In this document: piece after piece, positions 19,057 through 50,582 of the stretch | How positions within the stretch are numbered: the stretch's first letter is position 1 | How the letters are laid out: each line of letters opens with the position of its first letter | NCBI GenBank assembly: GCA_051313645.2 | Contig: JBNRSN020000029.1 | Span: forward strand, 31,620,001 to 31,684,000 | Direction: 5' to 3' | DNA length: 64,000 bases | DNA from: Centroscyllium fabricii | Taxonomy: Eukaryota | Position numbers and translations under genes: made by a program | The notes under the pieces: generated by a model | The model's input: the letters and a program-made list of their open reading frames with translations, nothing else | Databases searched by the model: none | What the model was told of the DNA's origin: nothing

Positions 19057-20230
19057 GCGAAACTGGCTCACAACCGACGTGAGCAGGACCGCATGGGTGG
19101 TGGTCCACCTGATCTAATGGAGCTGAGTCCCCTGGAAGTGCACGTGCAGCGGATTATGGGCAACTGCCTGAGTGCTCCTGTCGCCACAGGAGATGACGAC
19201 CCCTTTCTGGGCACCAGTGGTGAGTTCATGACCATCCTCTCCTCTCTCCTTCCTCTTGCTCCTCACAGCAGCAGCCTTTGGCACTTTTCATCCAAAGAAG
19301 TCGGTGCCTGCACTCATTGCTCCCTTGCTGCCACCTTGTCCTCATGCTAAACCCAGTCTTGTACCTCTGTCGTTTCAGATGGTGAATCATCAGCTGAGGA
19401 GGTGGCCCCTGAACCTTCGCAGGAGATGCAGTCAGAAGGGCAGGAGGAGGAAGAGGAAGAAGCAGCAGGATGCCCACCAAGGCGGTGGTGACAGGGGGGG
19501 TCTGCCTTCCATGCAGGGGAGTGATGAGTGGTGGGAGGTGCAGGGTGGTCCAGGCCCCAGCGGGGTGCTGCAATGCAAGGGGGGAGGGCAGCTCCAAAGC
19601 ATGTTGCCCGGAGTCATTGACCCCTGATGGCCTGACCGCGGAGGACGAGCGTGTCCTCTCACCAATGAGAGCCGAGGCGGGGCAGCGGCACAATGAGCCG
19701 ATGCGAGCGGTGGGGAGGTTGCCCGAAGCCCTGCGCGACATGGCGGAAGCCGCGCAGATGTTCACTGCTGCAGTGCAGTCAGTGGGTGCTGCACTCCAGT
19801 CAGTGGGTCCTGCTGTGCAGCCGCTTACTGACGCCATGCGTCAGCTGACTGGTGCCGTCTTGTCTTCGGGCACCATTACCCTGGGCTCTGAACGCGCCAC
19901 AGCAAGCCAGCAATCTGTGCTCCAGCAGATTGCTGGGGAAGATGAGGCGCGGGTGCCTGGGAGGGAGACTGGACTGGTGGAACAGGGAGGTGCTAGCCTC
20001 TCTCACCAGGGCAGCATTGCTGCTGCCAGCAGTGCCACTTCTCCACTGCTGTTCACCCCGCCTGTACACCAGACTGCTGCCGCCCATTCAGAGGTGGAGC
20101 AGTCTGAAGCTGGGCCCTCCAAGCCCAGAGCTGGTCGAGGCTGACCTTCAAAGGCTGTGGCAGTGTCAAGTTCGGACACTCCGCATCCTTCCACCAGCGT
20201 AGCTGCACCCACTGGGGTGACATTAAGGTG
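19057..20230 (+). pseudogene. Harbinger-type transposon Myb/SANT accessory-gene remnant
   Basis: Exon 19057-19219 (ttgcag|AKLAHNRREQDRMGGGPPDLMELSPLEVHVQRIMG...|gtgagt) carries the post-Myb/SANT 'xGGGP...L' signature of Harbinger/NAIF1-like proteins. The next exon starts at 19379 (acidic) and has a premature stop and frameshift. Confidence 0.6.
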
Positions 20231-21584
20231 CTGAGTCAATGTGGCGACCAGTCAGTGTGGTGCCAGTCAGTCTGGTGCCAAGTCAATGTGGTGACCAGTC
20301 AGTGTGGTGCCAGTCAGTGTGGTGCCAGTCAATGTGGTGCCAGTCAATGTGGTGCCAGCCAGTCTGGTGCCAGTCAATGTGGTGCTCGGTCAGTGAGGTT
20401 GCAGTCAGTGTGGTACCAGTCAATGTGGTGTCAGTCAGTGTGGCGCCAGTCAATGTAGTGTCTGGTCAGTGTGTTGCCCAGTCAAGATATTGACCAGTCA
20501 GTGTGTTGCCCAGTCAGTGTGATGCCCAGTCAATGTAGTGTCCGGTCAGTGTGTTGCCCAGTCAGTGCGTTGCCCAGTCAAGATATTGACCAGTCAGTGT
20601 GTTGCCCAGTCAGTGTTTTGCCCAGTCAGTATGTTGCCCAGTCAGTGTGGTGCCCGGCCAGTGTGGTGCCAATGAATGTGGTGCCAGTCATTGTGTTGCC
20701 CAATCAGTGTGGTGCCCAGTCAGTGTAAAGCCCGGTTAAGTGTGGTGCCAGTCAGTGTGGTGACAGTCAGTGGGGTTCCAGTCAGTGTGCTGCCAGTCAG
20801 TGTGGTGCCAGTCAGTGTGGTGCCTGGTCAGTGTGGTGCCAAACATTGTGGTGCCCAGTCAGTGTGGTGCAGGTAGTGTGGTGCCCAGTTAGTCTGGTGC
20901 CAGTCAATGTGTTGTGCCCGTCACTCTAGTGCCCAGTCATTGCGGTGATAATCAGTGCGGTGCCCAGTGAGGGTGGTGCCAGTCAGTCTGGTGCCAAGTC
21001 AATGTGGTGACCAGTCAGTCTGGTGCCAGTCAGTGTGGTGCCAATCAGTGTGGTGCCAGTTAGTGTGGTGTCAGTCAGCGTGCTGACCAGTCTGTGTGGT
21101 GCCAGTCAGTGTGGTGCCCAGTCAATGTGCCAGTCAGCCTGGTGCTGAGTCAATGTGGTGACCAGTCAGTGTGCTGCCTGTCAGTGTGTTGCCCTCTCAG
21201 TGGGGTGCCCACTCAGTCTGGTGCCAGTCAGTATGGTGCCCAGTCAATGTGGTATGAACGGTCAAGAGACAGAGATGGAGAGGCTTTGGGAAGGTCAAGG
21301 TGGTTGAGGGTGACGGTGAAACGGAGCGGACACGGGGTGAGTGTCAGAGTAAGAAGACTGGCGGGCAGGGGTGAAGACACGAGGATGGAGGAAAGGCTGG
21401 GGACATAGGACTCGGCAAGATTTGTAGGCGAGGATGAATTGGGGAAACATAGAAACATAGAAGATAGAAGCAGGAGTAGGCCATTCGGCCCTTCGAGCCT
21501 GCTCCGCCATTCAATGAGATCATGGCTGATCATCCAAACCCAGCACCCTGTCCCTACCTTGTCCCCATATCCCTTGATCCCTAT

Positions 21585-21847
21585 CGAGCCTGCACCAACA
21601 CATCTCCCACCCTATCCCCATAACACCACATATTCAATCTCCCTAACACTAAGGGTCAATTTATCCTGGCCAATCAACCTAACCCGCACACCTTTTGACT
21701 GTGGGAGGAAACCGGAGCACCCGGAGGAAACCCACGCAGACACGGGGAGAATGTGCAAACTCCACACAGATAGTACCCGAGGCCGAATTGGAACAGTCTC
21801 TAGTGCTGTAAGGCAACAGTGCTAACCAATATGCCACTGTGCCACCC
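21585..21847 (-). mobile_element. V-SINE (HE1-like)
   Basis: V-domain (tgtgggaggaaaccggagcacccggaggaaacccacgcagacacggggagaatgtgcaaactccacacaga) plus a degraded tRNA head at 21780-21847. A CR1 tail is adjacent at 21445-21583. Confidence 0.85.
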
Positions 21848-24800
21848 TATGCCTGGTGCCAGTCAGTGTGGTGAGAGTCAGTGGGGTTCCAGTCATTGTG
21901 GTGCCAGTCAGTCTGGTGCCAGTCTTTACATTGTGGTGCCCTCAGTGTGGTGCCAGTCAGTGTTGTGCCCGGTCAGTTTGCTGCCAGTCAATGTGTTTTG
22001 CCCGTCAGTCTAGTGCCCAGTCATTGCGGTGATAATCAGTGCGGTGCCCAGTGAGGGTGATGCCAGTCAGTCTGGTGCCAAGTCAATGTGGTGACCAGTC
22101 AGTCTGGTGCCAGTCAGTGTGGTGCCAGTCAGTGTGGTGCCAGTCAGTGTGTTGCCCAGTCAGTGTGCTGCCTGCTGAGTGTTGTGCCTGGTCAGTGTGG
22201 TGCCCGGTCAGTTTGTTGCCAGTCAATGTGTTGTACCTGGTCAGTTTAGTGCCCAGTCATTGCGATGTTAGTCAGTATGGTGCCAGTCAGTCTGGTGCCA
22301 AGTCAATGTGGTGCCAGTCAGTGTGGTGCCCACAGAGTGTGGTGCCCAGTCAATGAGGTGCCCAGTCAATGTGCTGCCAGTCAGCCTGATGCAGTCAATG
22401 TGGTGACCAGTCAGTGTGTTGCCTGTCAGTATGGTGCCAGTCAGTGCAGTGCCGAGTCAATGTGGTGACCAGTCACTGTGCTACCTGACAGTGTGGTGCC
22501 CTCGCAGTGGGTGCCCACTCAGTGTGGTGCCAGTCAGTGTGGTGTCCGGTCAGTTTGGTGCCAGTGAAAGTGATGCCAGTCAGTATGGTGCCAGGTCAAT
22601 GTGGTACCCAGTCAGTGTGGTGCCAGCCAGTACGGTTCCAGTCAGTGTGGTGCCAGTCAATGTGGTGCCAGTCATTGTGTTGCCCAGTCAGTGTGGTGCC
22701 AGTCAGTGCGGTGCCAGTCAGTGCGGTTCCAGTCAGTGTGGGGCCAGTAAGTGTGGTGCCAGTTAGTGTGGTGCCAGTCAATGTGGTGCCAGTCATTGTG
22801 TTGCCCAGTCAGTGTGGTGCCAGTCAGTGTGGTGCCAGTCAGTGTGGTGCCAGTCAGTGTGGTGCCAGTCAGTGCGGTTCCAGTGAGTGCGGTTCCAGTC
22901 AGTGTGGTTCCAGTCAGTGCGGTTCCAGTTAGTGTGGTGCCAGTCAGTGTGGTGCCAGTCAGTGTGGTGCCAGTCAGTGTGGTGCCAGTCAGTGTGGTGC
23001 CAGTCAGTGCGGTTCCAGTTAGTGTGGGTCCAGTCAGTGCGGTTCCAGTTAGTGTGGTGCCAGTCAGTGTGGTGCCAGTCAGTGTGGTGCCAGTCAGTTT
23101 GGTGCCAGTCAGTTTGGTGCCAGTCAGTGTAGTGCCAGTTAGTGTGGGTCCAGTCAGTGCGGTTCCAGTTAGTGTGGTGCCAGTCAGTGTGGTGCCAGTC
23201 AGTGTGGTGCCAGTCAGTGTGGTGCCAGTCAGTTTGGTGCCAGTCAGTTTGGTGCCAGTCAGTGTAGTGCCAGTTAGTGTGGGTCCAGTCAGTGCGGTTC
23301 CAGTTAGTGTGGTGCCAGTCAGTGTGGTGCCAGTTAGTGTGGGTCCAGTCAGTGTGGTGCCAGTCAGTGTGTTGCCAGTCAGTGCGGTTCCAGTTAGTGT
23401 GGGTCCAGTCAGTGTGGTGCCAGTCAGTGTGGTGCCAGTTAGTGTGGTGCCAGTTAGTGTGGTGCCAGTTAGTGTGGTGCCAGTTAGTGTGGTGCCAGTT
23501 AGTGTGGGTCCAGTCAGTGTGGGTCCAGTCAGTGCGGTTCTAGTTAGTGTGATGCCAGTCAGTGTGATGCCAGTCAGTGTGGTGCCAGTTAGTGTGGTGC
23601 CAGTCGGTGTGGTGCCAGTCAGTGTGGGTCCAGTCAGTGCGGTTCCAGTTAGTGTGGTGCCAGTCAGTGTGGTGCCAGTTAGTGTGGTGCCAGTCAGTGT
23701 GGTGCCAGTTAGTGTGGGTCCAGTCAGTGTGGTGCCAGTTAGTGTGGGTCCAGTCAGTGTGGTGCCAGATAGTGTGGGTCCAGTCAGTGTGGTTCCAATT
23801 AGTGTGGTGCCAGTCAGTGTGGTGCCAGATAGTGTGGGTCCAGTCAGTGCGGTTCCAGTTAGTGTGGGTCCAGTCAGTGCGGTTCCAGTTAGTGTGGTGC
23901 CAGTCAGTGCGGTTCCAGTTAGTGTGGTGCCAGTCAGTGTGGTGCCAGTTAGTGTGGGTCCAGTCAATGTGGTGCCAGTTAGTGTGGGTCCAGTCAGTGT
24001 GGTGCCTGTCAGTGTGGTGCCAGTTAGTGTGGTGCCAGTCAGTGCGGTTCCAGTTAGTGTGGTGCCAGTCAGTGCGGTTCCAGTTAGTGTGGTGCCAGTC
24101 AGTGTGGTGCCAGTTAGTGTGGGTCCAGTCAGTGTGGTGCCAGTTAGTGTGGGTCCAGTCAGTGCAGTTCCAGTTAGTGTGGGTCCAGTCAGTGCGGTTC
24201 CAGTTAGTGTGGTGCCAGTCAGTGCGGTTCCAGTTAGTGTGGTGCCAGTCAGAGTGGTGCCAGTTAGTGTGGGTCCAGTCAATGTGGTGCCAGTTATTGT
24301 GGGTCCAGTCAGTGTGGTGCCAGTCAGTGTGGTGCCAGTCAGTGTGGTGCCAGTCAGTGTGGTGCCAGTCAGTGCGGTTCCAGTTAGTGTGGTGCCAGTC
24401 AGTGCAGTTCCAGTTCGTGTGGTGCCAGTCAGTGTGGTGCCAGTCAGTGTGGTGCCAGTTAGTGTGGTGCCAGTTAGTGTGGGTCCAGTCAGTGTGGTGC
24501 CAGTAAGTGCGGTTCCAGTTAGTGTGGGTCCAGTCAGTGCGGTTCCAGTTAGTGTGGTGCCAGTCAGTGCGGTTCCAGTTAGTGTGGTGCCAGTCAGTGC
24601 GGTTCCAGTTAGTGTGGTGCCAGTCAGTGTGGGTCCAGTCAGTGCGGTTCCAGTCAGTGTGGTGCCAGTCAGTGTGGGTCCAGTCAGTGCGGTTCCAGTT
24701 AGTGTGGGTCCAGTCAGTGTGGTGCCAGTTAGTGTGGGTCCAGTCAGTGCGGTTCCAGTTAGTGTGCGTCCAGTCAGTGTGTTTCCAGTTATTGTGGGTC

Positions 24801-27053
24801 CAGTCAGTGCGGTTCCAGTTAGTGTGGGTCCAGTCAGTGCGGTGCCAGTCAGTGTGGTGCCAGTCAGTGTGGTTCCAGTTAGTGTGGGTCCAGTCAGTGC
24901 GGTTCCAGTTAGTGTGGGTCCAGTCAGTGTGGTTCCAGTTAGTGTGGGTCCAGTCAGTGCGGTTCCAGTTAGTGTGGGTCCAGTTAGTGTGGTGCCAGTC
25001 ATTGTGGTGCCAGTCAGTGTGGTTCCAGTTAGTGTGGTGCCAGTCAGTGTGGTGCCAGTCAGTGCAGTGTCCAGTCAGCGTGCTGTCCGGTGTGTGCAGT
25101 GACCAGTCAATGAGGTGCCCGGTCAGTATGGTGCCCGGTCGGTCTGGTTCCCAATCATTATGGTGCCCAGTCAGTGTGGTGGCAGTCAATCTGGTTCCAG
25201 TCAATGTGGATCAAGTCACTCTGGTGCCAGTCAGTGTGCTGCCAGTCAGTGTGGTGCCAATCAGTGTGGTGCCAATCAGTGTGGTGCCAATCAGTGTGGT
25301 GCCAGTCAGTGTGTTGCCAGTCAGTGTAGTGCCAGTTAGTGTGGGTCCAGTCAGTGCGGTTCCAGTCAGTGTGGTGCCAGTCAGTGTGGTGCCAGTCAGT
25401 TTGGTGCCAGTCAGTTTGGTGCCAGTCAGTGTGGGTCCAGTCAGTGCGGTTCCAGTTAGTGTGGTGCCAGTCAGTGTGGTGCCAGTTAGTGTGGGTCCAG
25501 TCAGTGTGGTGCCAGTCAGTGTGGTGCCAGTCAGTGCGGTTCCAGTTAGTGTGGGTCCAGTTAGTGTGGTGCCAGTCAGTGTGGTGCCAGTTAGTGTGGT
25601 GCCAGTTAGTGTGGTGCCAGTTAGTGTGGTGCCAGTTAGTGTGGGTCCAGTCAGTGTGGGTCCAGTCAGTGCGGTTCCAGTTAGTGTGATGCCAGTCAGT
25701 GTGATGCCAGTCAGTGTGGTGCCAGTTAGTGTGGTGCCAGTCGGTGTGGTGCCAGTCAGTGTGGGTCTAGTCAGTGCGGTTCCAGTTAGTGTGGGTCCAG
25801 TAGTGCGGTTCCAGTTAGTGTGGTGCCAGTCAGTGTGGTTCCAGTTAGTGTGGTGCCAGTCAGTGTGGTGCCAGTTAGTGTGGGTCCAGTCAATGTGGTG
25901 CCAGTTAGTGTGGGTCCAGTCAGTGTGGTGCCAGTCAGTGTGGTGCCAGTTAGTGTGGTGCCAGTCAGTGCGGTTCCAGTTAGTGTGGTGCCAGTCAGTG
26001 CGGTTCCAGTTAGTGTGGTGCCAGTCAGTGTGGTGCCAGTTAGTGTGGGTCCAGTCAGTGTGGTGCCAGTTAGTGTGGGTCCAGTCAGTGCGGTTCCAGT
26101 TAGTGTGGGTCCAGTCAGTGCGGTTCCAGTTAGTGTGGTGCCAGTCAGTGCGGTTCCAGTTAGTGTGGGTCCAGTCAGTGCGGTTCCAGTTAGTGTGGGT
26201 CCAGTCAGTGTGGTTCCAGTTATTGTGGGTCCAGTCAGTGCGGTTCCAGTTAGTGTGGGTCCAGTCAGTGCGGTGCCAGTCAGTGTGGTGCCAGTCAGTG
26301 TGGTTCCAGTTAGTGTGGGTCCAGTCAGTGCGGTTCCAGTTAGTGTGGGTCCAGTCAGTGTGGTTCCAGTTAGTGTGGGTCCAGTCAGTGCGGTTCCAGT
26401 TAGTGTGGGTCCAGTTAGTGTGGTGCCAGTCATTGTGGTGCCAGTCAGTGTGGTTCCAGTTAGTGTGGTGCCAGTCAGTGTGGTGCCAGTCAGTGCAGTG
26501 TCCAGTCAGCATGCTGTCCGGTGTGTGCAGTGACCAGTCAATGAGGTGCCCGGTCAGTATGGTGCCCGGTCGGTCTGGTTCCCAATCATTATGGTGCCCA
26601 GTCAGTGTGGTGACAGTCAATCTGGTTCCAGTCAATGTAGATCAAGTCACTCTGGTGCCAGTCAGTGTGCTGCCAGTCAGTGTGGTGCCAATCAGTGTGG
26701 TGCCAATCAGTGTGGTGCCAGTCAGTGTGTTGCCAGTCAGTGTGGTGCCAGTCAGTTTGGTGCCAGTCAGTGTAGTGCCAGTCAGTATGGTGACACTCAG
26801 TGTGTTGACCGTTCAGGCTGTTGCCAGTCAGTGGGGTGCCAGTCATTGTAGTTCCAGTCATTGTAGTTCCAGTCAGTGTGGGTCCAGTCAGTGTGGTGCC
26901 AGTCAGTGTGGTGTCCGGTCAGTGTGGTGCCAGTCTGTATGGAGCCAGTCAGTGTGGTGGCAGTCGGTATGGTGTCAGTCAATGTGGTGCCAAGTCAATG
27001 TGGTAACCAGTCAGTGTGGTGCCAGTCAGTGTGGTGCCAGTCAATGTGGTGCC

Positions 27054-27214
27054 TAACAACATTGTGGGTGTACCTACACCATATGGACCGCAGCGGTTCA
27101 AGAAGGTGGCTCACCACCATCTTCTCAAGGGCAATTAGGGATGGGTACTAAATGCAGGCCTAGCCAGCCAGCGACGCCCACATCCCATCAATGAATAAAA
27201 CAAAATAAAAAAAA
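27054..27214 (+). mobile_element. LINE 3' end fragment (CR1/L2 group)
   Basis: gcagcggttcaagaaggtggctcaccaccatcttctcaagggcaattagggatgg...aataaaa and an A-rich tail, inserted in the satellite. Confidence 0.7.
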
Positions 27215-28280
27215 GTCAGTCTGTTGCACAGTTAGAGTGGTGCCCGGTCAGTGTTGTGCCTGATCAGTGTGGTGCCCAGTCAGTTATGTGCCACTCAATG
27301 TTTTATGCCAAGTCAGTTCACTGCCCAGTCATTGCGGTGTTAGTCAGGGCGGTGCCCAGTCAGTGTGGTGCCCACTCAATGTGGTGCCAGTCAGTCTGGT
27401 GCGCCAAGTCAATGTGATGACCAGCCAGTGTGCTGCCCGTCCATGTGGTGACCAGTCAGTGTTGTGTCCGGCCAGTTTGGTGCCAGCCAATGTGACGCCA
27501 GTCAGTATGGTGCCCGGTCAGTGTGGTACCCAGTCAGTGTGGTACCCAGTCAGTGTGGTACCCAGTCAGTGTGGTGCCAGTCAGTGTGCTGCCCAGTCAG
27601 TGTGCTGCCCAGTCAATGTGGTGACCAGTCAGTGTGGTGCCAGTCAGTCTGGTGCCAAGTCAATGAGGTGAGCAGTCATTGTTGTGCCAGTCAGTGTGGT
27701 GCCGACAGAGTGTGTTGCCCAGTCAATGAGGTGCCCAGTCAATGTGCTGCCAGTCAGCCTGGTGCAGAGTCAATGTGGTGACAGTCAGTGTGGTGCCAGT
27801 CTGCGTGGTGCCAGTCAGTGCAGTGCCAGGCAGTGCAGTGTCCGGTCAATGTGGTGCCCAGTCAGTGTTGTGCCAGCCAGTGCAGTGCCCAGTCAGCGTG
27901 CTGTCTGGTCAGTGCAGTGACCAGTCAATGAGGTGCCCAGTCAGTGTGGTGGCCGGTCGGTGTGGTGCCCAATCAGTGTGGTGGCAGTCAACCTGGTTCC
28001 AGTCAATGTGGATCAAATCACTCTGGTGCCAGTTACTGTGCTGCCAGTTACTGTGCTGCCAGTCAGTGTGATGCCCAGTCAGTGTGGTGCCAGTCAGTTT
28101 GGTGCCTGGTCAGTGTGGTCCCAGTCAGTGTGGTGCCAGTCAGTGTAGTGCCAGTCAGTGTGGTGCCACTCAGTGTGTTGCTCGTTCAGGCTGTTGCCCA
28201 GTCAGTGTACTGCCTGCTGAGTGTTGTGCCCGGTCAGTGTTGTACCTGGTCAGTGTGGTGCCCGGTCAGTTTGTTGCCAG

Positions 28281-36700: not shown

Positions 36701-36762
36701 CCCAGTCAGTGTGGTGCCCGGTCAGTGTGGTGCCCAGTCAGTGTGGTGCCAGTCAGTGTGGT

Positions 36763-38205
36763 GTTCAAAAATGGTGGTAGAGAGAAAACGGGGAATTACA
36801 GACTGGTAAGCCTGACATCAGTAATGGGGAAAATGCTAGAGTCCATTATAAAATATGTAATAGCAGAACACTTGGAAAATAGTGACTGGATCGGACAAAG
36901 TCAACATGGATTTACAAAAGGTAAATCATGCTTCACTAATCTACTGGAATTGTTTGAGGATGTAACTGGTAAAATACATAAAGGAGAACCAGTGGATGTG
37001 GTGTACTTGGACTGTCAAAAGGCTTTCGATAAGGCCCCGCATAGGAGACTAGCGTGTAAAATTAAGGCACATGGGATTGGGGGCAAGGTATTGACTTGGA
37101 TAGAGAATTGGTTGGCAGACAGAAAGCAAAGCGCTCGAATAAATGGGTGTTTTTCTGAGTGGCAGGCAGTGACTAGTGGGGTACCGCAGGGATCAGTCCT
37201 TGGACCCCAGTTATTCACATTATATATCAATGATCTGGAAGAGGGAACTAGATGTAATATCTCCAAGTTTGCAGATGACACAAAGCTGGGTGGACATGTG
37301 TGCTGTGAGGAGCATGCAGAGAAACTCCAGTATGATTTGGACAGGTTGGGTGATTGGGCAGAAGCCTGGCTGATGCAATATAATGTGGATAAATGCGAGG
37401 TTATTCACTTTGGTGTCAAAAACAAGAAGTCAGATTATTATCTGAATGCCAATAGATTGTGCATAGGGGAAGTGCAACGAGACTTGGGTGTTCTTGTGCA
37501 CCAGTCACTGAAGGTAAGCATGCAGGTGCAGCAGGCGGTTTAGAAGGCAAATGGTATGTCAGCCTTTGTAGGGAGAGGGTTCGAGTACAGGAACAAGGAT
37601 GTCTTGCTGCAGTTGTACAGGGCCTTGGTGAGACCACACTTTGAGTACTGTGTGCAGTTTTGGTCGCCTTATCTAAGGAAGGATGTTCTTGCCATGGAGG
37701 GAGTTCCACGAAGATTCACCAGGCTGATACCTGGTCCGGCAGGAATGACGTATGAGGAGAGATTGGGTCGATTGGGCTTATACTCGCTGGAGTTTAGAAG
37801 AATGAGAGGGGATCTCATCGAAACTTATAAAATTCTAACAGGACTGGACAGACTGGATGCAGCAAGGATGTTCCCGATGGTGGCAGTGTCCAGGACCAGG
37901 GGTCACAATCTAAGGATAAGGGGTGAGCCATTTAGGACAGAGATAAGGAGGACTTTCTTCACCCAGAGAGTGGTGAACCTGTGGAAATCTCTACCACGTA
38001 AGGCAGTAGAGGCCAATGCATTAACTACATTCAAGAAGGAGTTGGATATACTTCTTAAGGCTAAAGGGATCAAGGGATGTGGAGAGAAAGCAGGGACAGG
38101 GTACTGAATTTGGCTGACCATCCATGATCGCATTGAATGGCGGAGCAGGCTTGAGGGTCCAAATGGCCTACTCCTGCTCCTATCGTCTGTTTCAATGTTT
38201 CTATG
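36763..38205 (+). mobile_element. 5'-truncated CR1 LINE in the satellite
   Basis: FKNGGREKTGNYRLVSLTS...QHGFTKGKSC...FADDTK to the ORF2 end with one internal stop, and a tail at 38205. Confidence 0.93.
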
Positions 38206-41200
38206 AGGCAGTGTGGTGCCAGTCAGTGCAGTACCCAGTCAGTGCGGTGCCCAGCCAGTGTGATGCCCAGTGAATGTGGTGCACGGTCAGTGTGGTTCCC
38301 AGTCAGTGTGGTGCCAGTCAGTGCAGTGCCCGGTCAGTGTGATGCCAGTCAGTGTGGTGCCAGTTAGTGCAGTGCCTGGTCAGTGTTGTGCCAGTCAATG
38401 TGGTGCCAACTCAGTGTGGGGCCTGGCTGTTGTGGTGCCTGGTCAGTGTGGTGTCCGGTCAGTGCATTACCCGGTCAGTGCAGTGCCCGGTCAGCATGGT
38501 GCCAGTCAGTGTGGTCCCCAGCCAGTGCAGTGCCTGCTCAGTGTGGTGCCCAGTTAGTGCAGTGCCAGTCAATGTAGTGCCCAGTCAGTGTGGTGCCCAG
38601 TCAGTGTGGTGCCCAGTCAGTGCAGTGCCAGTCAGTGTGGAGCCCAGTCAGTGCAGTGCCTGCTCAGTGCAGTGCCAGTCAGTGCAGTGCCAGTCAGTGT
38701 GGTGCCCAGACAGTGCGGTGCCCGGTCAGTGAGCTGCCAGTCAGTGTGGTGCCCAGACAGTGCGGTGCCCAGTCAGTGTGGTTCCCAGTCAGTGCGGAGC
38801 ACAGTCAGTGTGGTGCCCTGTCAGTGTGGTGCCCGGTCAATGCAGTGATTGGCTATTGTTGTGCCAGCCAGTGTTGTACCAAGTCAGTGTGGTGCCCTGT
38901 CAGTGCGGTCACCAGTCAGTGTGGTGCCCTGTCAGTGTGGTGTCTGGTCAGTATGGAGCCCAGTCAGTGAGGTGCCAGTCAGTGTGGTACCAGTAAGTGT
39001 GGTGCCCGGTCAGTGTGGCACCCAGTCATTGCGCTGCCCAGTCAGTGAGGTTCCAGTCAGTGAGGTTCCAGTCATGTGCTGCCCAGTCAATGCAGTGCCA
39101 GTCAGTGCGGTGCCTGGCCAGTTTGGTACCAGTCAGTGTGGTGCCCAGTCGGTGCAGTGACCGGTCAGTGTGGTGCCCAGTCGGTGTGATACTCAGTAAG
39201 TGTGCTGCCTAGTCTGTGTGGTACCCGGTCAGTGTGGTACCTGGTTAGTGTTGTGCCCAGTCATTGTGGTGCCAGTCAGTGTGGTGCCTGTTCAGTGTGG
39301 TGCCCGGTCAGTGCAGTGATTGGTCAATGTGGTGCCTGTCAGTACAGTGACCAGTCAGTGTGATGCCTGGTCAGAGTGGTACTCAGTCAGTGTGGTGCCC
39401 AGTAAGTGTGCTGCCTAGTCTGTGTGGTACCCGGTCAGTGTGGTACCTGCTTAGTGTTGTGCCCAGTCATTGTGGTGCCAGTCAGTGTGGTGCCTGTTCA
39501 GTGTGGTGCCCGGTTAGTGCAGTGATTGGTCAATGTGGTGCCTGTCAGTACAGTGACCGATCAGTGTGATGCCCCATCTGAGTGGTGCCCAATCAGTGTG
39601 GTGCCCAGTCTGTCTGGTGCCCGGTCAGTGTGATACCCTGTCAGGGATGTGCCCGGTCATTGTGGTGTCAGTCAGTGCAGTACCCTGTTGGTGCAGAGCC
39701 CTGTCAGTGTGGTGCCCTGTCGGTAAGGTGCCTAGTCAGAGTGGTGCCCTGTCAGTGAGCTTCCCAGTCAGAGTGGTGCCAGTCAGTGCATTCCCCAGTC
39801 AGTGCAGTGCCCACTCAGTGCAGAGCCCAGTCAATGTGGTGCCCTTTCGGTAAGGTGCCAGTCAGTGTGGTGCCCAGGCAGTGTGCAGCCCAGTCAGTGT
39901 GGTGCCCAGTGTTGTGCCCAGGCAGTGTGCAGCCCAGTCAGTGTGGTGCCCTGTCGGTAAGGTGCCCAGTCAGTGTGGTGCCCAGTCAGTGTGGTGTCCA
40001 GTCACTGCAGAGCCCAGTCAGTGTGGTGCCCAGTCATTCTGGTGCCCGGTTAGTGCTGTGCCCGGTCAGTGCAGAGACCGGTCAATGTGGTGCCCAGTCT
40101 GTGGTGGTGCCCGGTCAGTGTTGTGCCAGTCATTGTGGTGCCAATCAGTGTGGTGCCATCAGTGTTGTGCCAGTCAGTGTGGTGCCCTGTCAGTGTGGTT
40201 CCGACTCAGTGTGGAGCCCAGTCAGTGTGGTGCCCGGTCAATGCAGTGATTGGTTATTGTGGTGTTAGCCAGTGTTTTACCCAGTCAGTGTGGTGCCCAG
40301 TCAGGGTGGTGCCCAGTCAGGGTGGTGCCCAGTCAGGGTGGTGCCCAGTCAGGGTGGTGCCCAGACAGTGCGGTGCCCAGACAGTGTGGTGCCCAGGCGC
40401 TGTGGGTCCAGGTGGTGCAGTGCCCAGTCAGTGCGGTGCCCAGGCAGTGTGGTGCCCTGTCAGTGTGGTGCCTGGGTGTTCTGGTACCTGGGTGTTGTGG
40501 TGCCCAGGTGGTGTGTTGGCCTGTTTGTGTGGTGCCCAGTCAGTGTGGTGCTGGGTCAGTGCAGTGCCCAGTCTGTGCGGTGCTTGGCGATGTGGTACTC
40601 GGTCAGTGCAGTGCCAGGTAATGCAGCGCCAGGTCAGTGCTGTGGAAGGTGGTCCTGTGCCCAGTCCGTACCCGATCAGTGTTCTGCCAGGCCGTGCAGT
40701 ACATGGTCAGTACAGTGCCCAAGTGATGGGTTGTCAGGCATTGCAGTGCCAGTTTGAGTGGTGCCTGGTCAGTGTAGCACCCGGTCAGTACAGTGCTTTG
40801 TGTTGTGGTGCCCAGCCAGTGCGGTGCCAGGTGATGCCATGCCAGATGGTGCAGTGCCTGGTCATTTTAATGCCCAGTCAGTGTGGTGCCCGGTCAGTGC
40901 AATGCCCGGACAGTGCAATGCAAGGTAGTGCCTGGTCAATACCTGGTCAGTGGTGCAGTGACTGGCCAGTGCGGCACCCATGCGGTGAGCTGCCAGGTGG
41001 TGCGGTACCTGGACAGTACCCAGGCATTGTTGTGCTCAGTCTGTGTGGTGAATGGTCAGTGTGGTGCCCGGTCAGTGATCAGGTGGTGCCCACGCAATGC
41101 TGTGCCTGGTTTGTGTCCAGGTTATGCAGTGCCCAGGTGGTGTGGTGCCCAGTCAGTGCCCAGTCTATGCCCAAGCTGTGCGGAGCCCAGGCAGTGCATT

Positions 41201-42694
41201 GCGTGGTCTGCACGGTGACCGGTTGGTGCAGTGCCCATGCATTGTGGTACACTGTTGTGCAGTGCCCGGTAAATGCAGGGCCTGGTCTGTACCCAGGCAG
41301 TGTGGTGCCTGGTCGGTGCGGTACCCATTCTGTACCCAGCTGGTACAGTGCCTGGTCAGTGGGGTGTCTGGTCTGTACCCAGTTGGCGCGGTGCCCAGGT
41401 GGTTTGGTGCCCAGGAGGTGTGCTGCTGTCACTGCAGTGCCCGGGGGGTGGTGCCCAGTCTGTACCCAGAAGGTGTGGTACTTAGTCAATGTGGTGCCCA
41501 GGTGGTGTGGTGCCCGGTCGGTGCCCTGTTGGTGCCAGGTGGTGTGGTGTCCTGTTGGTGTGGTGCCCAGTGGGTGCCCTTTTGGTGTCCGTGTGGTGCC
41601 TGGTCTGTGCCCAGGCAGTGTGGTGCCTGGTCTGTGCCCCGACAGTGCAGTGCCCAATCTGTACCCAGGTAGTGTGGTGCCCGCTCTGTGCCCAGTTGTT
41701 TCATTGCCCAGGTGGTGTGGTGCCCGGCCTGTACCCAGGTGGTGCAGTGCCCGGTCAGTGCCCAGGTGGTGCAGTGCCCAGGCTGTGCGGTGACCGGTCT
41801 GTACCCAGGTAGTGTGGTGCCTTGTCATTGCCCAAACAGTGCGGTGCCTGGTCAGTGTACAGGTTGGTGCGGTGCCCAGTCAGTGCCCAGGCAGTGCATC
41901 GCCCAGTGTGGTGTGATGCCCGGTTGGTGCGGTGCCCATGCAGTGCAGTGCCCGGTCAGAGTGGTGTTCTCTCTGTGCCTAGGTGGTGTGGAGCCCAGTC
42001 ATTGTGGTGCCCAATCAATACCCAGGTTGTGCGGTGCCCAGTCAATGCCCAGGCTCTGCTGCACCTGGTGCAGTGTGGTGCCCGGTCAGTGATGTGCCCG
42101 GCAAGTGCCCAGGTAGTGCAGTGCCCGGTGCAGTGTGGTGCCCTGTTGGTGCAGTGCCCAGTCAGTGCGGTGCCAAGTTGGTGCCCAGACTGTGAGGTGT
42201 GCAGTCGGTGTGGTGCCTGGTCGGTGGCCAGGTGGTGCAGTGCCATTTTGCTGCAGTGCCCTTCAGTGCCCAGGCAGTGTGGTGCCTGGTCGGTGCACAG
42301 ACGGTGTGGTGCCCAGTCGATGCAGTGCCCAATAGGTGCCAGGTGGAGTGGAGCCCAGTCGGTGCCCAAGTGGTGCAGTGCCCAGTGTGGTGCACTGTTG
42401 GTGCCCGGTCTATGCCCAGACAGTGCTGTGCCCAGCCAGTGTGGTGCCCGGTCGGTGCGCAGGTGGTGCAGTGTCCGTTCTGTATGGTGCCCTGTCTGTG
42501 CCCAAGCAGTGCGGTGCCCAGTCAGTGTACAGATTGGTGCGGTGCCCTGTTGGTGTGGTGCCCAGTTGGTGCGGTGTCCGGTCAGTACCCAGGCAGTGCA
42601 GTGACCGGTCAGTGCCCAGTGTGGTGTGGTGCCTGGTTTGTGTGGTGCCCGGTCAGTGTACAGATTCATGCGGTGCCCAGTGTGGTGTGGTGCC

Positions 42695-42910
42695 TGTGGT
42701 TATATTTAACAACTTCCGGGGGAAGGTTGAATGGTGAACTCTGTACATGTCACTTCCTGTGCCCAGATAGTATAAATACTGGAGCTGCTCAGTATGGAGG
42801 AATGCTTCACCTGGAAGTATGGTAAAACCCACCTTTGTAAATAGTGACAATATGGTGGATTAAAACTTTACTTTAGAGTTATTGATGTATAAGACTCGTT
42901 TATTACATCA
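42695..42910 (+). mobile_element. Solo LTR inserted in the satellite
   Basis: TGTGGTTATA...TATTACATCA, TSD GTGCC (42690-42694 and 42911-42915), TATAAATA at 42771 and ATTAAA at 42859. It is an AT-rich island within the GT-rich array. Confidence 0.85.
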
Positions 42911-44689
42911 GTGCCCAGTTGGTGCAGTGTCTGGTCAGTACCCAGGCAGTGCAGTGCCCGGTGCAGTGTGGTGCCCTGTTGATGCAGTGCCCAGTCAGTG
43001 CGGTGCCCAGTTGGTGCCCAGACTGTGAGGTGCCCAGTCGGTGTGGTGCCTGGTCGATGGCCAGGTGGTGCGGTGCCATTTTGGTGGAGTGCCCAGGCGG
43101 TGCGGTGCCTGGTCGGTTCCCAGATGGTGTGATGCCCAGTCGATGCGGTGCCCAGTAGGTGCCAGGCAGAGTGGAGCCCAGTCGGTGCCCAGGCGGTGCA
43201 GTGCCAGTGTGGTGCACTGGTCTATGCACAGACGGTGCTGTGCCCAGCCAATGTGGTGCCCGGTCAGTGCGCAGGTGGTGCAGTGTCCGTTCCGTGTGGT
43301 GCCCTGTCGGTGCCGGTCAGTGTACAGATTGGTGCGATGCCCAGTGTGGTGTGGTGCCCTGTTGGTGTGGTGCCCAGTTGGTGCAGTGCCCGGTCAGTAC
43401 CCAGGCAGTGCAGTGCCCGGTCAGTGCCCAGTGTGGTGTGGTGCCCAGTTGGTGTGGTGCCCAGTTGGTGTGGTGCCCGGTCAGTACCCAGGCAGTGCAG
43501 TGCCCGGTCAGCGCCCAGTGTGGTGTGGTGCCCGGTTGGTGCGGTGCCCATGCGGTGCAGTGCCCAGTCGGTGTGGTGCTCTGTCTGTGCCCAGGTGGTG
43601 AGGTGCCCAGTCAGTGCGGTGCCCGATCAGTGCTCAGGTGGTACGGTGCCCAGGCAGTGCTGCACCTGGTGTGGTGAGGTGCCCTGTTGGTTCAGTGCCC
43701 ATGCAGTGCAGTGCCCAGTCCGTGTGGTGCCTGGTCGGTGGCCAGGTGGTGCGGTGCCATTTTGGTGCAGTGCCCTTCGGTGCCCAGGCGGTGCAGTGCC
43801 TGGTCGGTGCCCAGACGGTGTGGTGCCCAGCCGATGCGGTGCCCAGTCGGTGCCAGGCAGAGCGGAGCCCCGTCAGTGCCCAGGCAGTGCAGTGCCCAGT
43901 GTGGTGCACTGTCGGTGCCCGGTCTGTGCCCAGGCAGTGCAGTGCCCAGCTAGTGTGGTGCCCGGTCTGTGCGCAGGTGGTGCTGTGTCCGTTCAGTGTG
44001 GTGACCTGTCGGTGCCCAAGTGGTGTGGTGCCCAGTTGGTGCGGTGCCTGGTTGGTGCCCAGGTGGTGTGCTGCCCGGTCAGTACCCAGGCAGTGTGGTG
44101 CCCGGTTGGTGCGGTGCCCGGTGAATGTCCGGTCGGTGTGGTGCCGGGTCGGTGCCCAGGTGGTGTGGTGCCTGGTCAGTGCGGTTCTTGGTCAGTGCCC
44201 AGGCAGTGCAGTGCCTGGTCGGAGCAGTGCCCGGTCGGTGCCCAGGCACTGTGGTACCTGTTTGGTGCCCAGGCAATGTGGTGCCCAGTCGGTATGGTGC
44301 CCAGTTGGTGCCAAGGTGGTGTGCTGCCCGTTCGGTACCCAGGCAATGTGGTGCCCGGTCGGTGTGGTGCCCGGCCAGTGTGGTGCCCGGTCAGTGCCCG
44401 GTTGGTGTGGTGCCCGGTCGGTGCCCAGGTGGTGTGATGCCCAATCAGTGCGGTGCCCAGTCAGTGTGGTGCCAGGTCGGTGCCCAGGAGGTGTGGTGCC
44501 TGGTCTGTGCGGTACCCGGTCAGTGCCGAAGTGTAGTGGTGCCCAGGCGGTGCGCTGCCTGGTCGGTGTGGTGCCTGGTCAGTGCCCAGTCGCAGTGTCC
44601 CATCTGTGCCCAGGCAATGCGGTGCCCGGTTGTTGCAGTGCCCAGTTGGTGCCCAGGCAGTGGGTTGCCCAGGCGGTGTGGTGTGAATT

Positions 44690-45815
44690 GGGTATTAACG
44701 ATATTAACGATTTGGAGGGGACCGAGTGTAACATATCAAAGTTTGCAGAGGATACAAAGATGGGAGGGAAAATAGTGAGGGAGGAGGACATAAAAAACCT
44801 GCAAGGGGACATAGACAGGCTAAGTGAGTGGGCAGAGATTTGGCAGATGGAATACAATACTGGAAAGTGTGAGGTTATGCACTTTGGAAGGAAAAAACAT
44901 AGAGCTAGTTATTATCTTAATGGCAAGATACTGGAAAGTACTGTAGTACAAAGGGATCTAGGGGTCCTGGTGCACAAAACTCAAAAGTTTAGTATGCAGG
45001 TGCAACAAGTGATTAAGAAGGCCAATGGAATGTTGGCTTTCATTGCTAGGGGGACAGAATATAAAAATAGGGAGGTATTGCTTCAGTTGTACAAGGTATT
45101 GGTGAGACCACACTTGGAATACTGTGTACAGTTTTGGTGTCCATACATAAGAAAGGACATACTCGCTCTGGAGTCAGTACAAAGAAGGTTCACTCAGTTA
45201 ATCCCAGGGATGAGGGGGTTGGACATATGAGGAGAGGTTGAGTAGATTGGGACTCTACTCATTGGAGTTCAGAAGAATGAGGGGAGATCTTATTGAAACA
45301 TATAAGATTGTGAAGGGGTTGGATCGAGTGGACGCGGGGAGGATGTTCCCAATGATAGGTGAAACTAGAACTAGGGGGCATAATCTTAGAATAAGGGGCT
45401 GCTCTTTCAAAACTGAGATGAGGAGAAACTACTTCACTCAGAGGGTAGTAGGTCCATGGAACATGCTGCCCAAAAAAGCTGCAGAAGCTACAACATTACA
45501 TAAATTTAAAACAGAAATAGACAGCTTCCTAGAAGTAAAAGGGATTATGGGTTACGGGGAGCGGGCAGGAATTTGGACATGAGTCTAGGTTCAGATCGGT
45601 CATGGCCCTGTGGGTAGTGGAGCGGGTCCAGGGACCGTGTAGCCTGATCCTGCTCCTATTTCATGTGTCTAATTCTGTTAGATTCAGGAGATGGTTCTGT
45701 GATAGTAGATTGGTGGTTAGGATCAGATCAGCCATGATCTTATTGAATGCCAGAGCAGGCTCGAGGGGTCGATTGGCCTACTCCTGCTCCTATTTCTTAT
45801 GTTCTTATGTTCTTG
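44690..45815 (+). mobile_element. 5'-truncated CR1 LINE plus a second CR1-type tail
   Basis: INDLEGTECNISKFAEDTK...RRMRGDLIE...; a second tail lies at 45715-45815. Confidence 0.9.
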
Positions 45816-48800
45816 TTCATTGTGGTGCCCAGTCATTGCCCAGGTAGTGTGGTGCCTGGTCGGTGCGGTGCCCGGTCAGTGCCCATGCGCTGTGGTGCCC
45901 GATCAGTGCGGTACTCAGTCGGTGCCCAGGCGGTGTGGTGCCCGGCTGATGCCCAGGCTGTGTCGTGCCCGGTCAGTGCTGAGCCCGGTCGGTGCCCAGT
46001 TGGTGTGGTACCCAGTCGGTGCCCAGATAGTGTGGAGCCCGGTCGGTGCATTGCTCGGCCAGTGCCCAGGTGGTGTGGTGGCCGGTTGGTGCCCAGGCAG
46101 TGCGGTGCCCGGTCGGTGTCCAGGCAGTGTGGTGCCTGGTCAGTGCCCGGTCAGTGCCCAGGCATTGTGGTGCCCGATCAGTGCGGTGCCCGGTCAGTGC
46201 CCAGCCAGTGCCGTGCCCAGTCAGTGCGGTGCCCAGGTGGTGTGGTGCCCAGGCGGTGTGGTTCCCTGTTGGTGCATTGCCCAGGCGCTTTGGTACCCTG
46301 TCGGTGTGCTGCCCGGCGATGTGTTGCCCAGGCTGCGTGGTGCCCTGTCGGTGTGTTGCCCAGGTTGTGTGGTGCCCTGTCAGTGTGTTGGCCAGGCAGT
46401 ACGGTGCCTGGTCTGTGTGGTGCCCTGTCGGTGTGGTGCCCGGTTGGTGCGGTGTCCGGTTGCTGTGGTGCTCGGTCAGTGCCCAGGTGGTGCGGTGCCC
46501 AATGTGGTGTGGTCCCTTTTTGTGCAGTCCCTGGTGTGGTGTGGTACCCTGTTGATCGGGTGGTGCCCGGTCAGTGCAGTGCCCGGTCAGTGCCCAGGTG
46601 GTGTCATGCCCGGTCAGTGCGGTGCCCAGGTGATGTGGTGCCCAGTCGGTGCCCAGGCGGTGTGGTGCCCGGTTGGTGCCCAGTCAGTGCCCAGGTGATG
46701 TGCTGTCCGGTTGGTACCCAGGTGGTGTGGTGCACGGTTGGTGCAGTGCTCGGTCAGTGTCCGGTCAGTGCAGTGCCTGGTCAGTGCCCAGGCAGTGCAG
46801 TGCCCCGTCGGAGCGGTGCCCGGTCGGTGTCCAGGCACTGTGGTGCCCGTTCAGTGCCCAAGCAATGTGGTGCCCAGTTGGTGTGGTGCCCAGTCGGTGC
46901 CAACGTGGTGTTCTGCCCAGTCAGTGCCCAGGCAGTGTGGTGCCCGGTTAGTGTGGTGCCCGGTCGGTGTCCAGGCGGTGTGGTGCCCGGTTGGTGCTTG
47001 CCTGGTCGGTGCCCAGTCGGTGTGGTGCCCAGTCAGTGAGTTGCCCGGGCTGTGCCCAGGTGGTGTGGTTCCCGGTCATTGCGGTGCCCAGTCGTTGCCC
47101 AGGCAGTGTAGTGCCCAATCAGTGCGGTGCTCTGTCGGTGCCCAGGTGGTGTGGTGCCTGATCGGTGCCCAGGCGGTGTGGTGCCCGGTCGGTGTGGTGC
47201 CCGGTCGATGCCCAGGCTGTGTCGTGCACGGTCAGAGGCCAGGCAGTGTGGTGCCCGGTCGGTGCCCAGGTGGTGTGGTGCCCGATCAGTGCATTGCCCG
47301 GTCGGTGCCCAGCGGTGCGGTGCCCGGTCAGTGCCCAGTCGGTGCCATGCCCAGTCATTGCCCGGTCGGTGCGGTGCCTGGTCGGTGCCCAGGCAGTGTG
47401 GTGCCCGGTCATTGCGGTGCCCAGGCAGTGTAGTGTCCGGTCGGTGCGGTGCCCAGGCAGTGTGGTGCCCAGTCAGTGCGGTGCTCTGTCGGTGCCCAGG
47501 CAGTGTGGTGCCTGGTCGGTGTGGTGCCCGGTCGATGCCCAGGCTGTGTGGTGCCTGGTCGGTGGTCAGGCAGTGTGCCTGGTCCGTGCGGTGTCCGGTC
47601 GCTGCTCAGGCTGTGTGGTGTCTGGGCTGTGCCCAGGCAATGTGGTACACGGTCGTTGCGGTGCCCAGTCATTGCTCAGGGAGTGTGGTGCTCGGTCGGT
47701 GCGATGCCCGGTCGGTGCCCAGGCGGTGTGGTGCCCGGTCGGTGAGGTGCCTAGTCGGTGTGGTACCCGGTCGGTGCGGTGCTCGGTCGGTGTTCAGGCA
47801 TTGTGGTGCCCGGTCGGTACAGTGCCCGGTCGGTGCCCAGGCGGTGTGGTGCCCGGTTGGTGCGGTGCCCGGTCAGTGGGCAGGCAGTGTGGTGCCCGGT
47901 CAGTGCCCAGGTGGTGTGGTGTCCAGGAAGTGTGGTGCCCAGACAGTGCAGTGCTCGGTGTGGTGCCCACTCGGTGCCCAGGCGGTGTGGTGCTTGGTCA
48001 GTGCCCAGGTGGTGTGGTGCCCGTTGGTGCCCAGGCAGTGTGGTATCTGGTCAGTGCCCGGTCAGTGCGGTGCCCAGTCAGTGTCGAGGCAGTGTGGTGG
48101 CTGGTCAGTGCCCAGTCAGTGCAGTGCCCGGTCGGTGCCCAGGCAGTGTGGTAACTTGTCGGTGCATTCCCCATTCGGTGCCCAGGTGATGTGGTGCCCG
48201 GTCAGTGTGGTGCCTGGTCAGTGCGGTGCCCAGTGGTGTGCCCAGTTGGTGCGGTGCCTGGTGTGCTGCCCGGCCAGTGTCCAGTCAGTGTGGTGCCTGG
48301 TCGGTGTGGTGCCCGGTCAGTGCCCGGTTGGTGTGGTGCCCGGTCAGTGTGATGCTTGGTCGGTGCCTGGTCGGTGTGGTGCTCGGTCATTGCCCAGTCG
48401 GTGTTGTGCCCGGTTGGTGCCAAAGCGGTGCAGTGCCCGGTCGGTGCAGTGCCCGGTCGGTGCGGTGCCTGGTCGGTGCAGTGCCTGGTGTGGTGTGGTG
48501 CCCAGTCAGTGCCCGGTCGGTGTGGTGCCTGGTGTGGTGTGGTGCCCGGTGTGGTGTGGTGCCCAGTCAGTGCCCAGTCGGTGCGGTGCCTGGTCGGTGC
48601 CCGGTTGGTGTGGTGCCCGGTCTGTGCCCGGTCGGTGCGGTGCTCGGTGTGGTGTCTGGTCAGTGCGGTGCCTGGTCGGTGTGGTGCCCAGGCGGCGCCT
48701 GGTCATTGTGGTGCCTGGTCGGTGTGTTGCCCGGTCGTTGCTGTGCCTGGTCGGGTTGGTTCCCAGGCGGTGCAGTGCACGGTGTGGTGCCCGGTCAGTG

Positions 48801-49539
48801 CACGGTCGGTGCGGTGCCCAGGCGGTGCCCAGTGTGGTGCCCGGTCGGTGCGGTGTCGGTGTGGTGACCGGTCAGTGCGGTGCCTGGTCATTGCCCGGTC
48901 AGTTCCCGGTCGGTGTGGTGCCCAGTGTGGTGCCCGGTCGGTGCGGTGCCCGGTCGGTGCGGTGCCCGGTGCAGTGCCCGGTGCAGTGCGAGGTCGGTGT
49001 AGTGGTTGGTGTGGTGCCCGGTGTGGTGCCCGGTCGGTGCAGTGCCTGGTAGGTGTGGTGCCCGGTCGGTGCGGTACCCGGTCAGTGCGGTGCCCGGTCG
49101 GTGTGGTTCCCGGTGTGGTGCCCGGTCGGTGCGGTGCCCGGTGTGGTGCCCAGTTGGTGCAGTGCCTGGTTGGTGTGGTGCCCGGTCAGTGCGGTGCCCG
49201 GTCAGTGCGGTGCCTGGTCGGTGTGGTGCCCGGTCGGTGTGGTGCCCGGTCAGTGCGGTGCCTGGTCGGTGTGGTGCCCAGTCGGTGCGGTGCCCTGTCT
49301 GTGAGGTGCCCGGTGTGGTGCCCGGTCAGTGCAGTGCCCGGTCGGTGCGGTGCCCGGTCGGTGTGGTGCCCGGTCAGTGCAGTGCCTGGTCGGTGTGGTG
49401 CCCGGTCAGTGCACGGTCGGTGCGGTGCCCAGGCGGTGTGGTGCCCGGTCAGTGCGGTGCCTGGTCAGTGTGGTGCACGGTCGGTGTGGTGCCCGGTCAG
49501 TGTGGTGCCCGGTCGGTGCAGTGCCCGGTCAGTGTGTTG

Positions 49540-49935
49540 CGGGGCTCTGCCGGCGGGGGCGCTCCCTCTCCCTCCCCTGAGCCGGGCTCTCTCTCTCTCT
49601 CTGGCCCCGCCCGCTTCACCCGCCGCCCGCCCGCCCCGCGCCGACACACTCAGCCGGAGCCGCCCGCCAGCTCGCGGTGAGTACCCAGCGCCGGGGCCTC
49701 GGGCCGGCCAGAGCCGAACCGAGGCCCCGAGAGCCCAGCTGAGTCCAGCCCCGGCCTCTGGCAGCCGCGTCCAGCCCCGGCCTCTGGCAGCCGCGGTGCC
49801 CGGGGCTGGGGCTCTGTGTCTGGGGCAAAGTCAGCAAACATCCAGCCGCCGGCACTCAGCGGCCCAGCCAAACCTCCGCACCCGCTGTCAGTGCAGCAAC
49901 CCGGGCCCAGCCCAGCGGGGAGGGGGTCAGATCCC
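49540..49935 (+). promoter_or_regulatory. ZBTB22: CpG island, promoter and putative non-coding exon 1 of ZBTB22
   Basis: Very GC/CpG-rich unique sequence with several GC-boxes (ccgccc, 49607-49636) and a strong donor gcg|gtgagt at 49677, which would splice to acceptor 54887. It contains a 26-bp tandem duplication at 49743-49794. Confidence 0.65.
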
Positions 49936-49936
49936 T

Positions 49937-50542: not shown

Positions 50543-50582
<40 letters not shown>

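Follow-up and report, generated by a model that had tools for sequence, protein, structure and literature searches.

How does a satellite that borders a promoter come to hold more CpG the closer its units lie to that promoter, and can the profile be read as a record of germ-line methylation? The question is raised by a 64,000-nt stretch of the Centroscyllium fabricii genome (assembly GCA_051313645.2, contig JBNRSN020000029.1, positions 31,620,001 to 31,684,000 of the forward strand; hereafter the window), in which a tandem repeat occupies positions 20228..49536 upstream of the CpG island of a ZBTB22-like gene. An earlier reading of the letters, the original prediction, held that the whole 29 kb arose as, or is maintained as, an extension of the island, and that CpG deamination along it shows how far germ-line hypomethylation spreads from the promoter. 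Here we report that the CpG gradient is confined to the inner third of the array, that it combines a series of age layers with an effect of position at equal age, and that the outer part has a different history. The explanation in which we place slightly better than even confidence is that a single-locus satellite, built from a unit with three CpGs, expanded layer by layer at the border of the ZBTB22 island, its CpG profile being a mixture of age and position.

A hidden-state tokeniser resolved the region into three sub-units, GTGCC[A], GT[B] and GTG[C], each letter in brackets denoting a dinucleotide derived from CpG. The repeat unit is GTGCC[A]-GT[B]-GTG[C], which bears out the proposed three-CpG monomer; the all-CpG 16-mer occurs exactly 9 times, always at 47361-49337. 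CpG counts in the four 60-bp windows singled out by the original prediction were reproduced as 7, 6, 0 and 0. The repeat does span the 29-kb region, but only 20,339 bp of it is satellite, in 7 blocks with 1,358 first sub-units (about 1,360 units), and six insertions take up 8,970 bp. Units are 11, 12, 15 or 16 bp long; periodicity at 27, 43 and 70 bp is weak, with 62-65% matches along the long inner stretches. At 49536-49540 the array gives way to GC-rich unique DNA with no spacer, as had been noticed before; it lies upstream of the island only, with no layers on the downstream side. The island itself (48300-49935) measures 1.6 kb, with a GC content of 72% and an observed/expected (o/e) CpG ratio of 0.74, and the array supplies three quarters of it; by composition the inner 1.2 kb of the array belongs to the island. 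The repeat is specific to this locus: every exact match to two patterns in the 7.2-Gb genome (7 of 7 and 11 of 11) falls inside this array, and 49 of the 72 matches in a genome similarity search are local, the remaining 23 being partial at 65-81%. No transposable-element or paralogous source of the unit was found by these pattern and similarity searches, and there was no Rfam match in the window. Long open frames within the repeat were set aside as by-products of the unit.

Along the array, the share of CpG-derived sites still in the CG state is flat below 40.4 kb (0.04-0.11 in 10 of 10 bins) and then climbs through nine bins to 49.5 kb with values of 0.14, 0.21, 0.25, 0.33, 0.35, 0.40, 0.39, 0.47 and 0.54, the end bins being 40.4-41.5 kb and 48.9-49.5 kb. 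Its Spearman correlation with distance from the island over these 9 bins is -0.98. When sites are treated as independent, a ramp-to-plateau model is the best by the Akaike information criterion (2271, versus 2280 for two steps, 2290 for an exponential and 2303 for one step), and the fitted CG share is 0.51 at the island and levels off at 0.08 by 11 kb. The gradient exists and is gradual, and it is limited to the inner 9-11 kb. The predicted gradient therefore stands from 40.4 kb inward, but for the outer 20 kb we find the step-like profile that the original prediction had named as speaking against itself.

This outer 20 kb (distal domain, 20228..40400, plus strand like all the satellite segments described here) is a separate, step-like secondary expansion of an already decayed unit. 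It consists of 15- and 16-mers in which site C is mostly TG and site B is fixed as CA (629 CA, 109 TA, 11 CG, 3 TG), and in the short distal 15-mer site A is almost always CA. These CA states at both sites, together with abundant internal block duplications of 85-100% identity, are the reasons for deriving the domain from a decayed founder. Both strand outcomes of CpG decay had been claimed for all three sites; the claim is right inward of 40.4 kb only, distal site B having almost no TG. The domain includes a very recent, homogeneous block of 15-mers at 22600..26800, with duplication offsets of 1431, 1926 and 2137-2152 and many tiles 96-100% identical, and this youngest distal block is CpG-poor because its founder had already decayed.

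Inward of the boundary the direction of change can be read from the decay products. In the oldest layer (40400..41500) site A is found as 8 CG, 14 CA and 14 TG, and site C as 9 CG, 19 CA and 21 TG; site B at 41.5-43.8 kb gives 18 CG, 30 CA and 23 TG. Since CA and TG are symmetric, and each is one step from CG and two steps from the other, the pattern indicates that CG is the ancestral state at the three sites of the unit. Weak-to-strong changes at non-CpG T sites are rarest near the island (3 of 479 at 46.7-49.5 kb, against 0.03-0.07 distally), which together with the CA/TG symmetry makes a gain of CpG by biased conversion unlikely. Neighbouring sites in the inner layers decay nearly independently (1 of 9 linkage tests at p<0.05). 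As a separate observation, TG exceeds CA at site C in every layer, and in its CG or TG state this site gives TGYGGT, which we take to be a RUNX-type core.

Part of the gradient is age, so it cannot be read as position alone, as the original prediction had done. Non-CpG divergence from the common unit drops from 0.141 to 0.020 between 40.4 and 49.5 kb, a seven-fold range; mismatch increases with distance (p=3e-11, 4866 sites), and there is a difference between 45.8-48.3 kb (8.0%) and 48.3-49.5 kb (3.5%; p=2e-5). We read these values as three layers. The oldest, which also forms the domain boundary, shows 14% non-CpG divergence and the lowest self-similarity (best tile matches 69-76%). The middle layer (41500..48300), made of 11-mers, 16-mers and GG-subtype 16-mers, stands at about 8% throughout, and the promoter-side layer (48300..49536), made of 16- and 12-mers, at 3.5%, with a CG share of about 0.5 and a GC content of 72%. 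The oldest part is thus in mid-array, with younger sequence to either side. CpG decay from a CG ancestor does separate the layers, as had been proposed, but their unit types differ as well: 15-mers are distal, 11-mers and the GG subtype mark 40.4-48.3 kb and are almost gone in the last 0.6 kb, and 12- and 16-mers characterize the promoter end.

The middle layer makes it possible to examine position at equal age. For this purpose the CG state was compared with the rarer decay product only, to avoid inherited variants, an estimator without meaning for the distal domain, whose units did not start out as CG. Relative to this minority class, CG in the middle layer becomes scarcer with distance (rho -0.23, p=6e-6, n=366); non-CpG divergence shows no such trend (rho 0.02, p=0.23, n=3410). 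The far and near zones differ in their ratio of CG to minority decay (103:90 versus 129:44, p=3e-5) at similar non-CpG mismatch (155/1858 versus 124/1552, p=0.75), and the difference persists when a single copy of a triplicated block is used (p=1.5e-4). CpG decay per non-CpG change is 6.3 (confidence interval, CI, 4.8-8.3) at 41.5-43.8 kb, 4.5 at 43.8-44.7 kb and 3.1 (2.3-4.1) at 45.8-48.3 kb; in 29 dispersed copies of a long interspersed nuclear element (LINE) it is about 7, a rough comparison because base composition differs. A gapless diagonal scan, which inflates non-CpG differences at block edges, was kept out of the rates, and of the short token-level pairs, whose selection on non-CpG likeness biases the ratio upward, only those scoring 106 and 47 were used. 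At equal age, CpGs 6-8 kb from the island decay about twice as fast as those at 1-4 kb. What survives of the predicted record of hypomethylation is this position effect in the inner part, and not a 29-kb record; near copies are probably younger and, in addition, methylated only in part in the germ line, which would make the inner part alone readable as a methylation record.

Comparison with related organisms (here B, C and D) took in 7 of 21 sequencing runs; summed contig depths in them were not taken as copy numbers, which they do not represent. Two runs of an organism A did not reach the island, and two further runs, considered for RNA support, left the putative first exon uncovered, from which nothing is concluded. 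The unique part of the island is about 95% conserved in organisms B and C, with 17 differences over 325 aligned letters in C. A single 560-nt contig of organism C, at single-copy depth, aligns to 49472-49760 across the junction between satellite and island; satellite contigs of organism D, from one run, include none across the junction. A second contig of organism C differs from 49458-49534 at 1 of 77 nt, six CpGs included, although by a hand estimate about 4 differences would be expected at the island rate and about 6 with methylated CpGs; its best other match inside this array has 8 differences. These nearly unchanged 77 nt lend mild support to a sheltered edge. Both C and D yield many satellite contigs, mostly of CA-state units, a predominance which implies that the decayed form is old.

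Several observations weigh against the explanation that we favour. The decay ratio of the promoter-side layer (5.4, CI 2.9-11.3) is not below that of the layer behind it, and its ratio of CG to minority decay equals that at 45.8-48.3 kb (p=1.0), so any protection does not visibly deepen towards the island. In the best-supported duplication, which links 44.2 and 46.8 kb, 3 CpGs were lost in each copy, and 44.04-44.7 kb shows no difference from the near zone (p=0.10); the dependence of CpG retention on position is thus limited to 41.5-43.8 kb versus nearer zones, and it could be a step. A LINE 3' fragment in the middle layer (44686..45808, plus strand, 3.7-4.9 kb from the island), used as an internal reporter, lost 7 of 20 CpGs at 1.7% non-CpG divergence, no less than its 29 dispersed sister copies (24% at 2.0%); LINEs may themselves attract methylation. 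Half of the CpG-derived sites (13 of 26) in the last 155 bp of the array are lost, so that the proposed view of the repeat as an extension of the island fits the composition of its inner 1.2 kb, but not a full protection there, and no fully protected core with little CpG decay, as in a promoter-hypomethylation model, reaches into the repeat. Eleven copies of a 69-bp repeat behind the island (described below) retain 12 of 19 CpGs, against 3,598 of 3,990 in a large 69-bp array at equal non-CpG divergence (p=0.002). Taken together, the inner-layer ratio, the losses at the border, the LINE, the duplication and these copies indicate that protection is partial at best. The low divergence of the inner 1.2 kb could be constraint rather than youth. 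The strand asymmetry at sites B and C is not explained by sequence context, for which only ACG is raised in the LINE control (0.23 versus 0.08-0.10), and implies that some decayed states were inherited, which introduces a bias into all estimates; a raised decay of ACG is likewise described for primates in the part of the report used here (PMC13245866). Finally, the second contig of organism C continues on the island side for 156 letters that do not align to the island; the change of length at the promoter end since the split that this implies speaks for turnover at the edge, as layered growth would have it, but it is one event and may have gone in either direction.

In the explanation of layered growth at the island edge, units would be born with CG at all three sites, and new layers would form at the promoter end, leaving the older ones further out (about 14%, 8% and 3.5% non-CpG divergence); we infer this order from the divergence. 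Germ-line methylation at the island edge would be partial, and CpGs within about 5 kb of the island would decay at roughly half the rate at 6-9 kb, a slower decay that would let a CG-bearing template persist. A fully decayed unit at the outer edge would then have seeded the separate 20-kb expansion, with its flat low CpG. The data require no function of the array. A more specific version, which we regard as possible but tentative, is a promoter-anchored conveyor belt, in which the island shelters a CG-rich template and units added there are pushed through a half-methylated shore into fully methylated DNA. If this version is true, the satellite renews three quarters of a gene's CpG island, and the locus preserves, for a cartilaginous fish, the history of germ-line methylation in dated form and at base resolution, as a promoter counterpart of centromeric layered expansion.

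Age and position may also be taken each on its own. The inner array could be of one age, with CpG reading a spatial methylation gradient and the low divergence at the promoter end due to constraint or to a lower mutation rate. This agrees with the gradient in the equal-age middle layer and with the last 77 nt in organism C, and distance beats local divergence as a predictor of the CG state (log-likelihood -666.7 versus -671.0, adding divergence gaining 1.1). We nevertheless consider it rather unlikely in view of the seven-fold range of non-CpG divergence, the shift in unit architecture between layers, the flat outer 20 kb and the loss of half of the sites at the border. Conversely, the whole array could be methylated alike, with CpG loss measuring only the time since each unit was made; CpG decay does correlate with non-CpG divergence (r=0.88, 9 bins), a crude ratio of the two stays at 6.5-15.6 in 15 of 15 bins, the LINE reporter is unprotected, and the 69-bp copies behind the island retain only 12 of 19 CpGs. 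That account must face the two-fold difference in decay at equal non-CpG divergence, and it needs a CG template that outlasts about 12% non-CpG divergence while the distal founder lost its sites, so we judge it improbable.

Protection need not come from the island. It could reflect a hypomethylated young or active satellite, or a zone beside a large array, as the evenly CpG-rich 69-bp array downstream would allow and in line with ape data, in which young sequences and satellites are sperm-hypomethylated with an extension into the flanks (10.64898/2026.06.15.732472, in the part used here). But there is little CpG in the most recently amplified block (22.6-26.8 kb), the gradient is directed towards the island over some 10 kb, and the 69-bp array has no gradient over 143 kb, which leaves this account with little probability. 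Still less probable is selection for CpG-rich units, with the inner array as a working upstream promoter that has an 11-bp word in common with the island. The contribution of the inner 1.2 kb to the island, its low non-CpG divergence, the junction kept in organism C and the island match (1 of 300 shuffles) are in keeping with such a role; selection would, however, act only weakly on individual CpGs when hundreds of units out to 5 kb are redundant, and even at the border half of the sites have decayed. As for a CpG-free ancestral unit that gained CpG near the promoter by GC-biased gene conversion, an outcome which the original prediction had set against itself, the dominance of CA-state units in organisms C and D would suit it, yet it is contradicted by the rarity of weak-to-strong changes near the island and by the symmetric CA and TG of the oldest layer, which need a CG ancestor; we hold it to be extremely improbable.

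The unique part of the island (49537..49935, plus strand, 399 bp) has a GC content of 76% and a CpG o/e of 0.71. A GTGAGT donor-like site is present at 49677, and the ATG is closely preceded by an acceptor-like CAG, so that the first exon is likely non-coding and ends at the donor-like site; from the island itself, the splice-donor-like site and the conservation we infer that the island is a promoter. An 11-bp perfect match to the all-CpG unit (49793..49803, plus strand), with no difference listed at that site in organisms B or C, is a candidate for the seed of the array or for a shared binding site. The coding exon at 54900..56258 (plus strand) encodes 452 amino acids (aa) with BTB and C2H2 zinc-finger domains. 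We call the gene ZBTB22-like, as was originally proposed, because shark ZBTB22-like proteins are the top 4 of the 120 matches listed (70-82% identity). DAXX, a neighbour of ZBTB22 in human, has its sole domain match in the genome (locus L063, G000:C324) on another contig, which is uninformative on identity.

Right behind the island, a 700-bp TG/TA purine-pyrimidine tract occupies 49936-50640; such tracts are reportedly a target of ZBTB43, a paralogue of ZBTB22. The 11 copies of the 69-bp repeat follow at 50819-51575, likely in the first intron, 1.3-2 kb downstream of the island and in an orientation opposite to that of the large 69-bp array. The latter begins about 71 kb downstream of the island (G000:C811:31740836-31883997, L086-L100), extends over at least 143 kb (2,078 monomers) and has retained about 80% of its CpG sites, uniformly over that distance, with little CpG decay for its divergence. 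It looks germ-line hypomethylated and is possibly of centromere type.

Besides the LINE reporter, the array is interrupted by a young Ty3/Gypsy long terminal repeat (LTR) retrotransposon in the distal domain (28280..33717, plus strand), flanked on both sides by GCCAG. Its LTRs show 409 matches, 4 mismatches and a gap; it has one 1,385-aa open frame with gag, protease, reverse transcriptase, RNase H and integrase domains, and a CpG o/e still at 0.5-1.0. A LINE fragment with reverse transcriptase lies at 36768..38206 (plus strand), and we assume this piece and the reporter to be CR1-like. The smaller insertions are a 214-bp one in the middle layer (42697..42910, no strand given, family unassigned), a 597-bp retroelement-like one (21252..21848, no strand given) and a 159-bp A-tailed one (27056..27214, plus strand), the last two without classification. 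At the 5' end of the array, 19060-20227 is degenerate coding-like sequence with splice sites, possibly a DNA-transposon relic, and a 21-bp repeat at 19766-19820 holds the word CAGTCAGTG, present also in the distal unit. Further upstream there are a second Ty3/Gypsy-type element at 14200-16600, on the minus strand and in pieces, with a chromodomain-bearing integrase, and a 200-base assembly gap (7286-7485) that separates two unrelated minisatellites with 33-bp and 31-bp units. Elsewhere in the genome, L022-L023 (G000:C336), L026-L027 (G000:C224) and L016 (G000:C778) are kilobase minisatellites on GGTCAGTG or GTGCCCGG words with flat and high CpG, L016 having the words of the 12-mer variant in common over 300 bp; L022/L023, L026 and L030 carry a 45-bp repeat with AAGATGGCGGC, which we take to be YY1-like. 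No clear case of a second promoter satellite with a gradient appeared at 17 loci around weak matches or in 464 kb around the window, where 7 of the 22 arrays longer than 700 bp belong to this satellite; as the islands there are mostly retroelement-derived, the test is a weak one.

The ingredients of this locus, namely CpG decay, promoter repeats and layered satellite growth, are known, and their ordered combination at one locus is unusual; a literature search, mainly of openly readable papers, yielded no report of a gradient of CpG decay along a satellite next to a promoter. Units of the same sequence, about 1,360 in number, stand at known distances from the island, each with three CpG reporters and a non-CpG clock, so that age can be separated from position, which unique DNA does not allow at a single gene. 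The locus is an example of a CpG island that consists mostly of repeat, and for sharks it predicts germ-line methylation at roughly half level up to about 5 kb and complete beyond 6 kb.

The following comparisons with known systems draw on parts of the cited reports. Human tandem-repeat CpG islands (TR-CGIs) are locus-unique imperfect tandem repeats of at least 400 bp, with 50-150-bp units, in or within 200 bp of a promoter CpG island; they are lineage-restricted, and many are partly methylated, gametes included (PMC12307798). Similarly, the present repeat abuts an island, is unique to its locus and exceeds 400 bp, its uninterrupted block next to the island alone measuring 3,728 bp. It differs in its 11-16-bp units and in its 20 kb of repeat, and no CpG decay or age layers along the repeat are described for TR-CGIs in the parts compared. 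In mammalian promoters, CpG retention tracks how long the DNA is unmethylated in the germ line (PMC5793779), as averaged over unique DNA from many genes; the present single locus offers hundreds of reporters of the same sequence, together with a non-CpG clock. D4Z4 and other CpG-rich macrosatellites show methylation gradients from one array end over kilobases to tens of kilobases (PMC10620044), which are measured as 5-methylcytosine on kilobase units in somatic cells, whereas the gradient described here is known from sequence. In apes, young sequence is CpG-rich and old sequence CpG-poor across genome-wide classes (10.64898/2026.06.15.732472); here the layers are ordered at one promoter, and the youngest distal block is CpG-poor. 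The closest parallel in growth is centromeric alpha satellite, where expansion of new repeats at the active site pushes aside the older layers, which are more divergent and interrupted by transposons, and the youngest layer tends to coincide with low CpG methylation (10.1101/2021.07.12.452052). Divergence rises away from the presumed active site here as well, although it is flat inside the middle layer. A kinetochore on the youngest layer would be at odds with its 1.2-kb size and with the abutting gene. Alpha satellite is anchored at the kinetochore and layered on both sides over megabases, whereas the array at ZBTB22 is anchored at a gene promoter and layered on one side over about 9 kb, with a second expansion at its far end.

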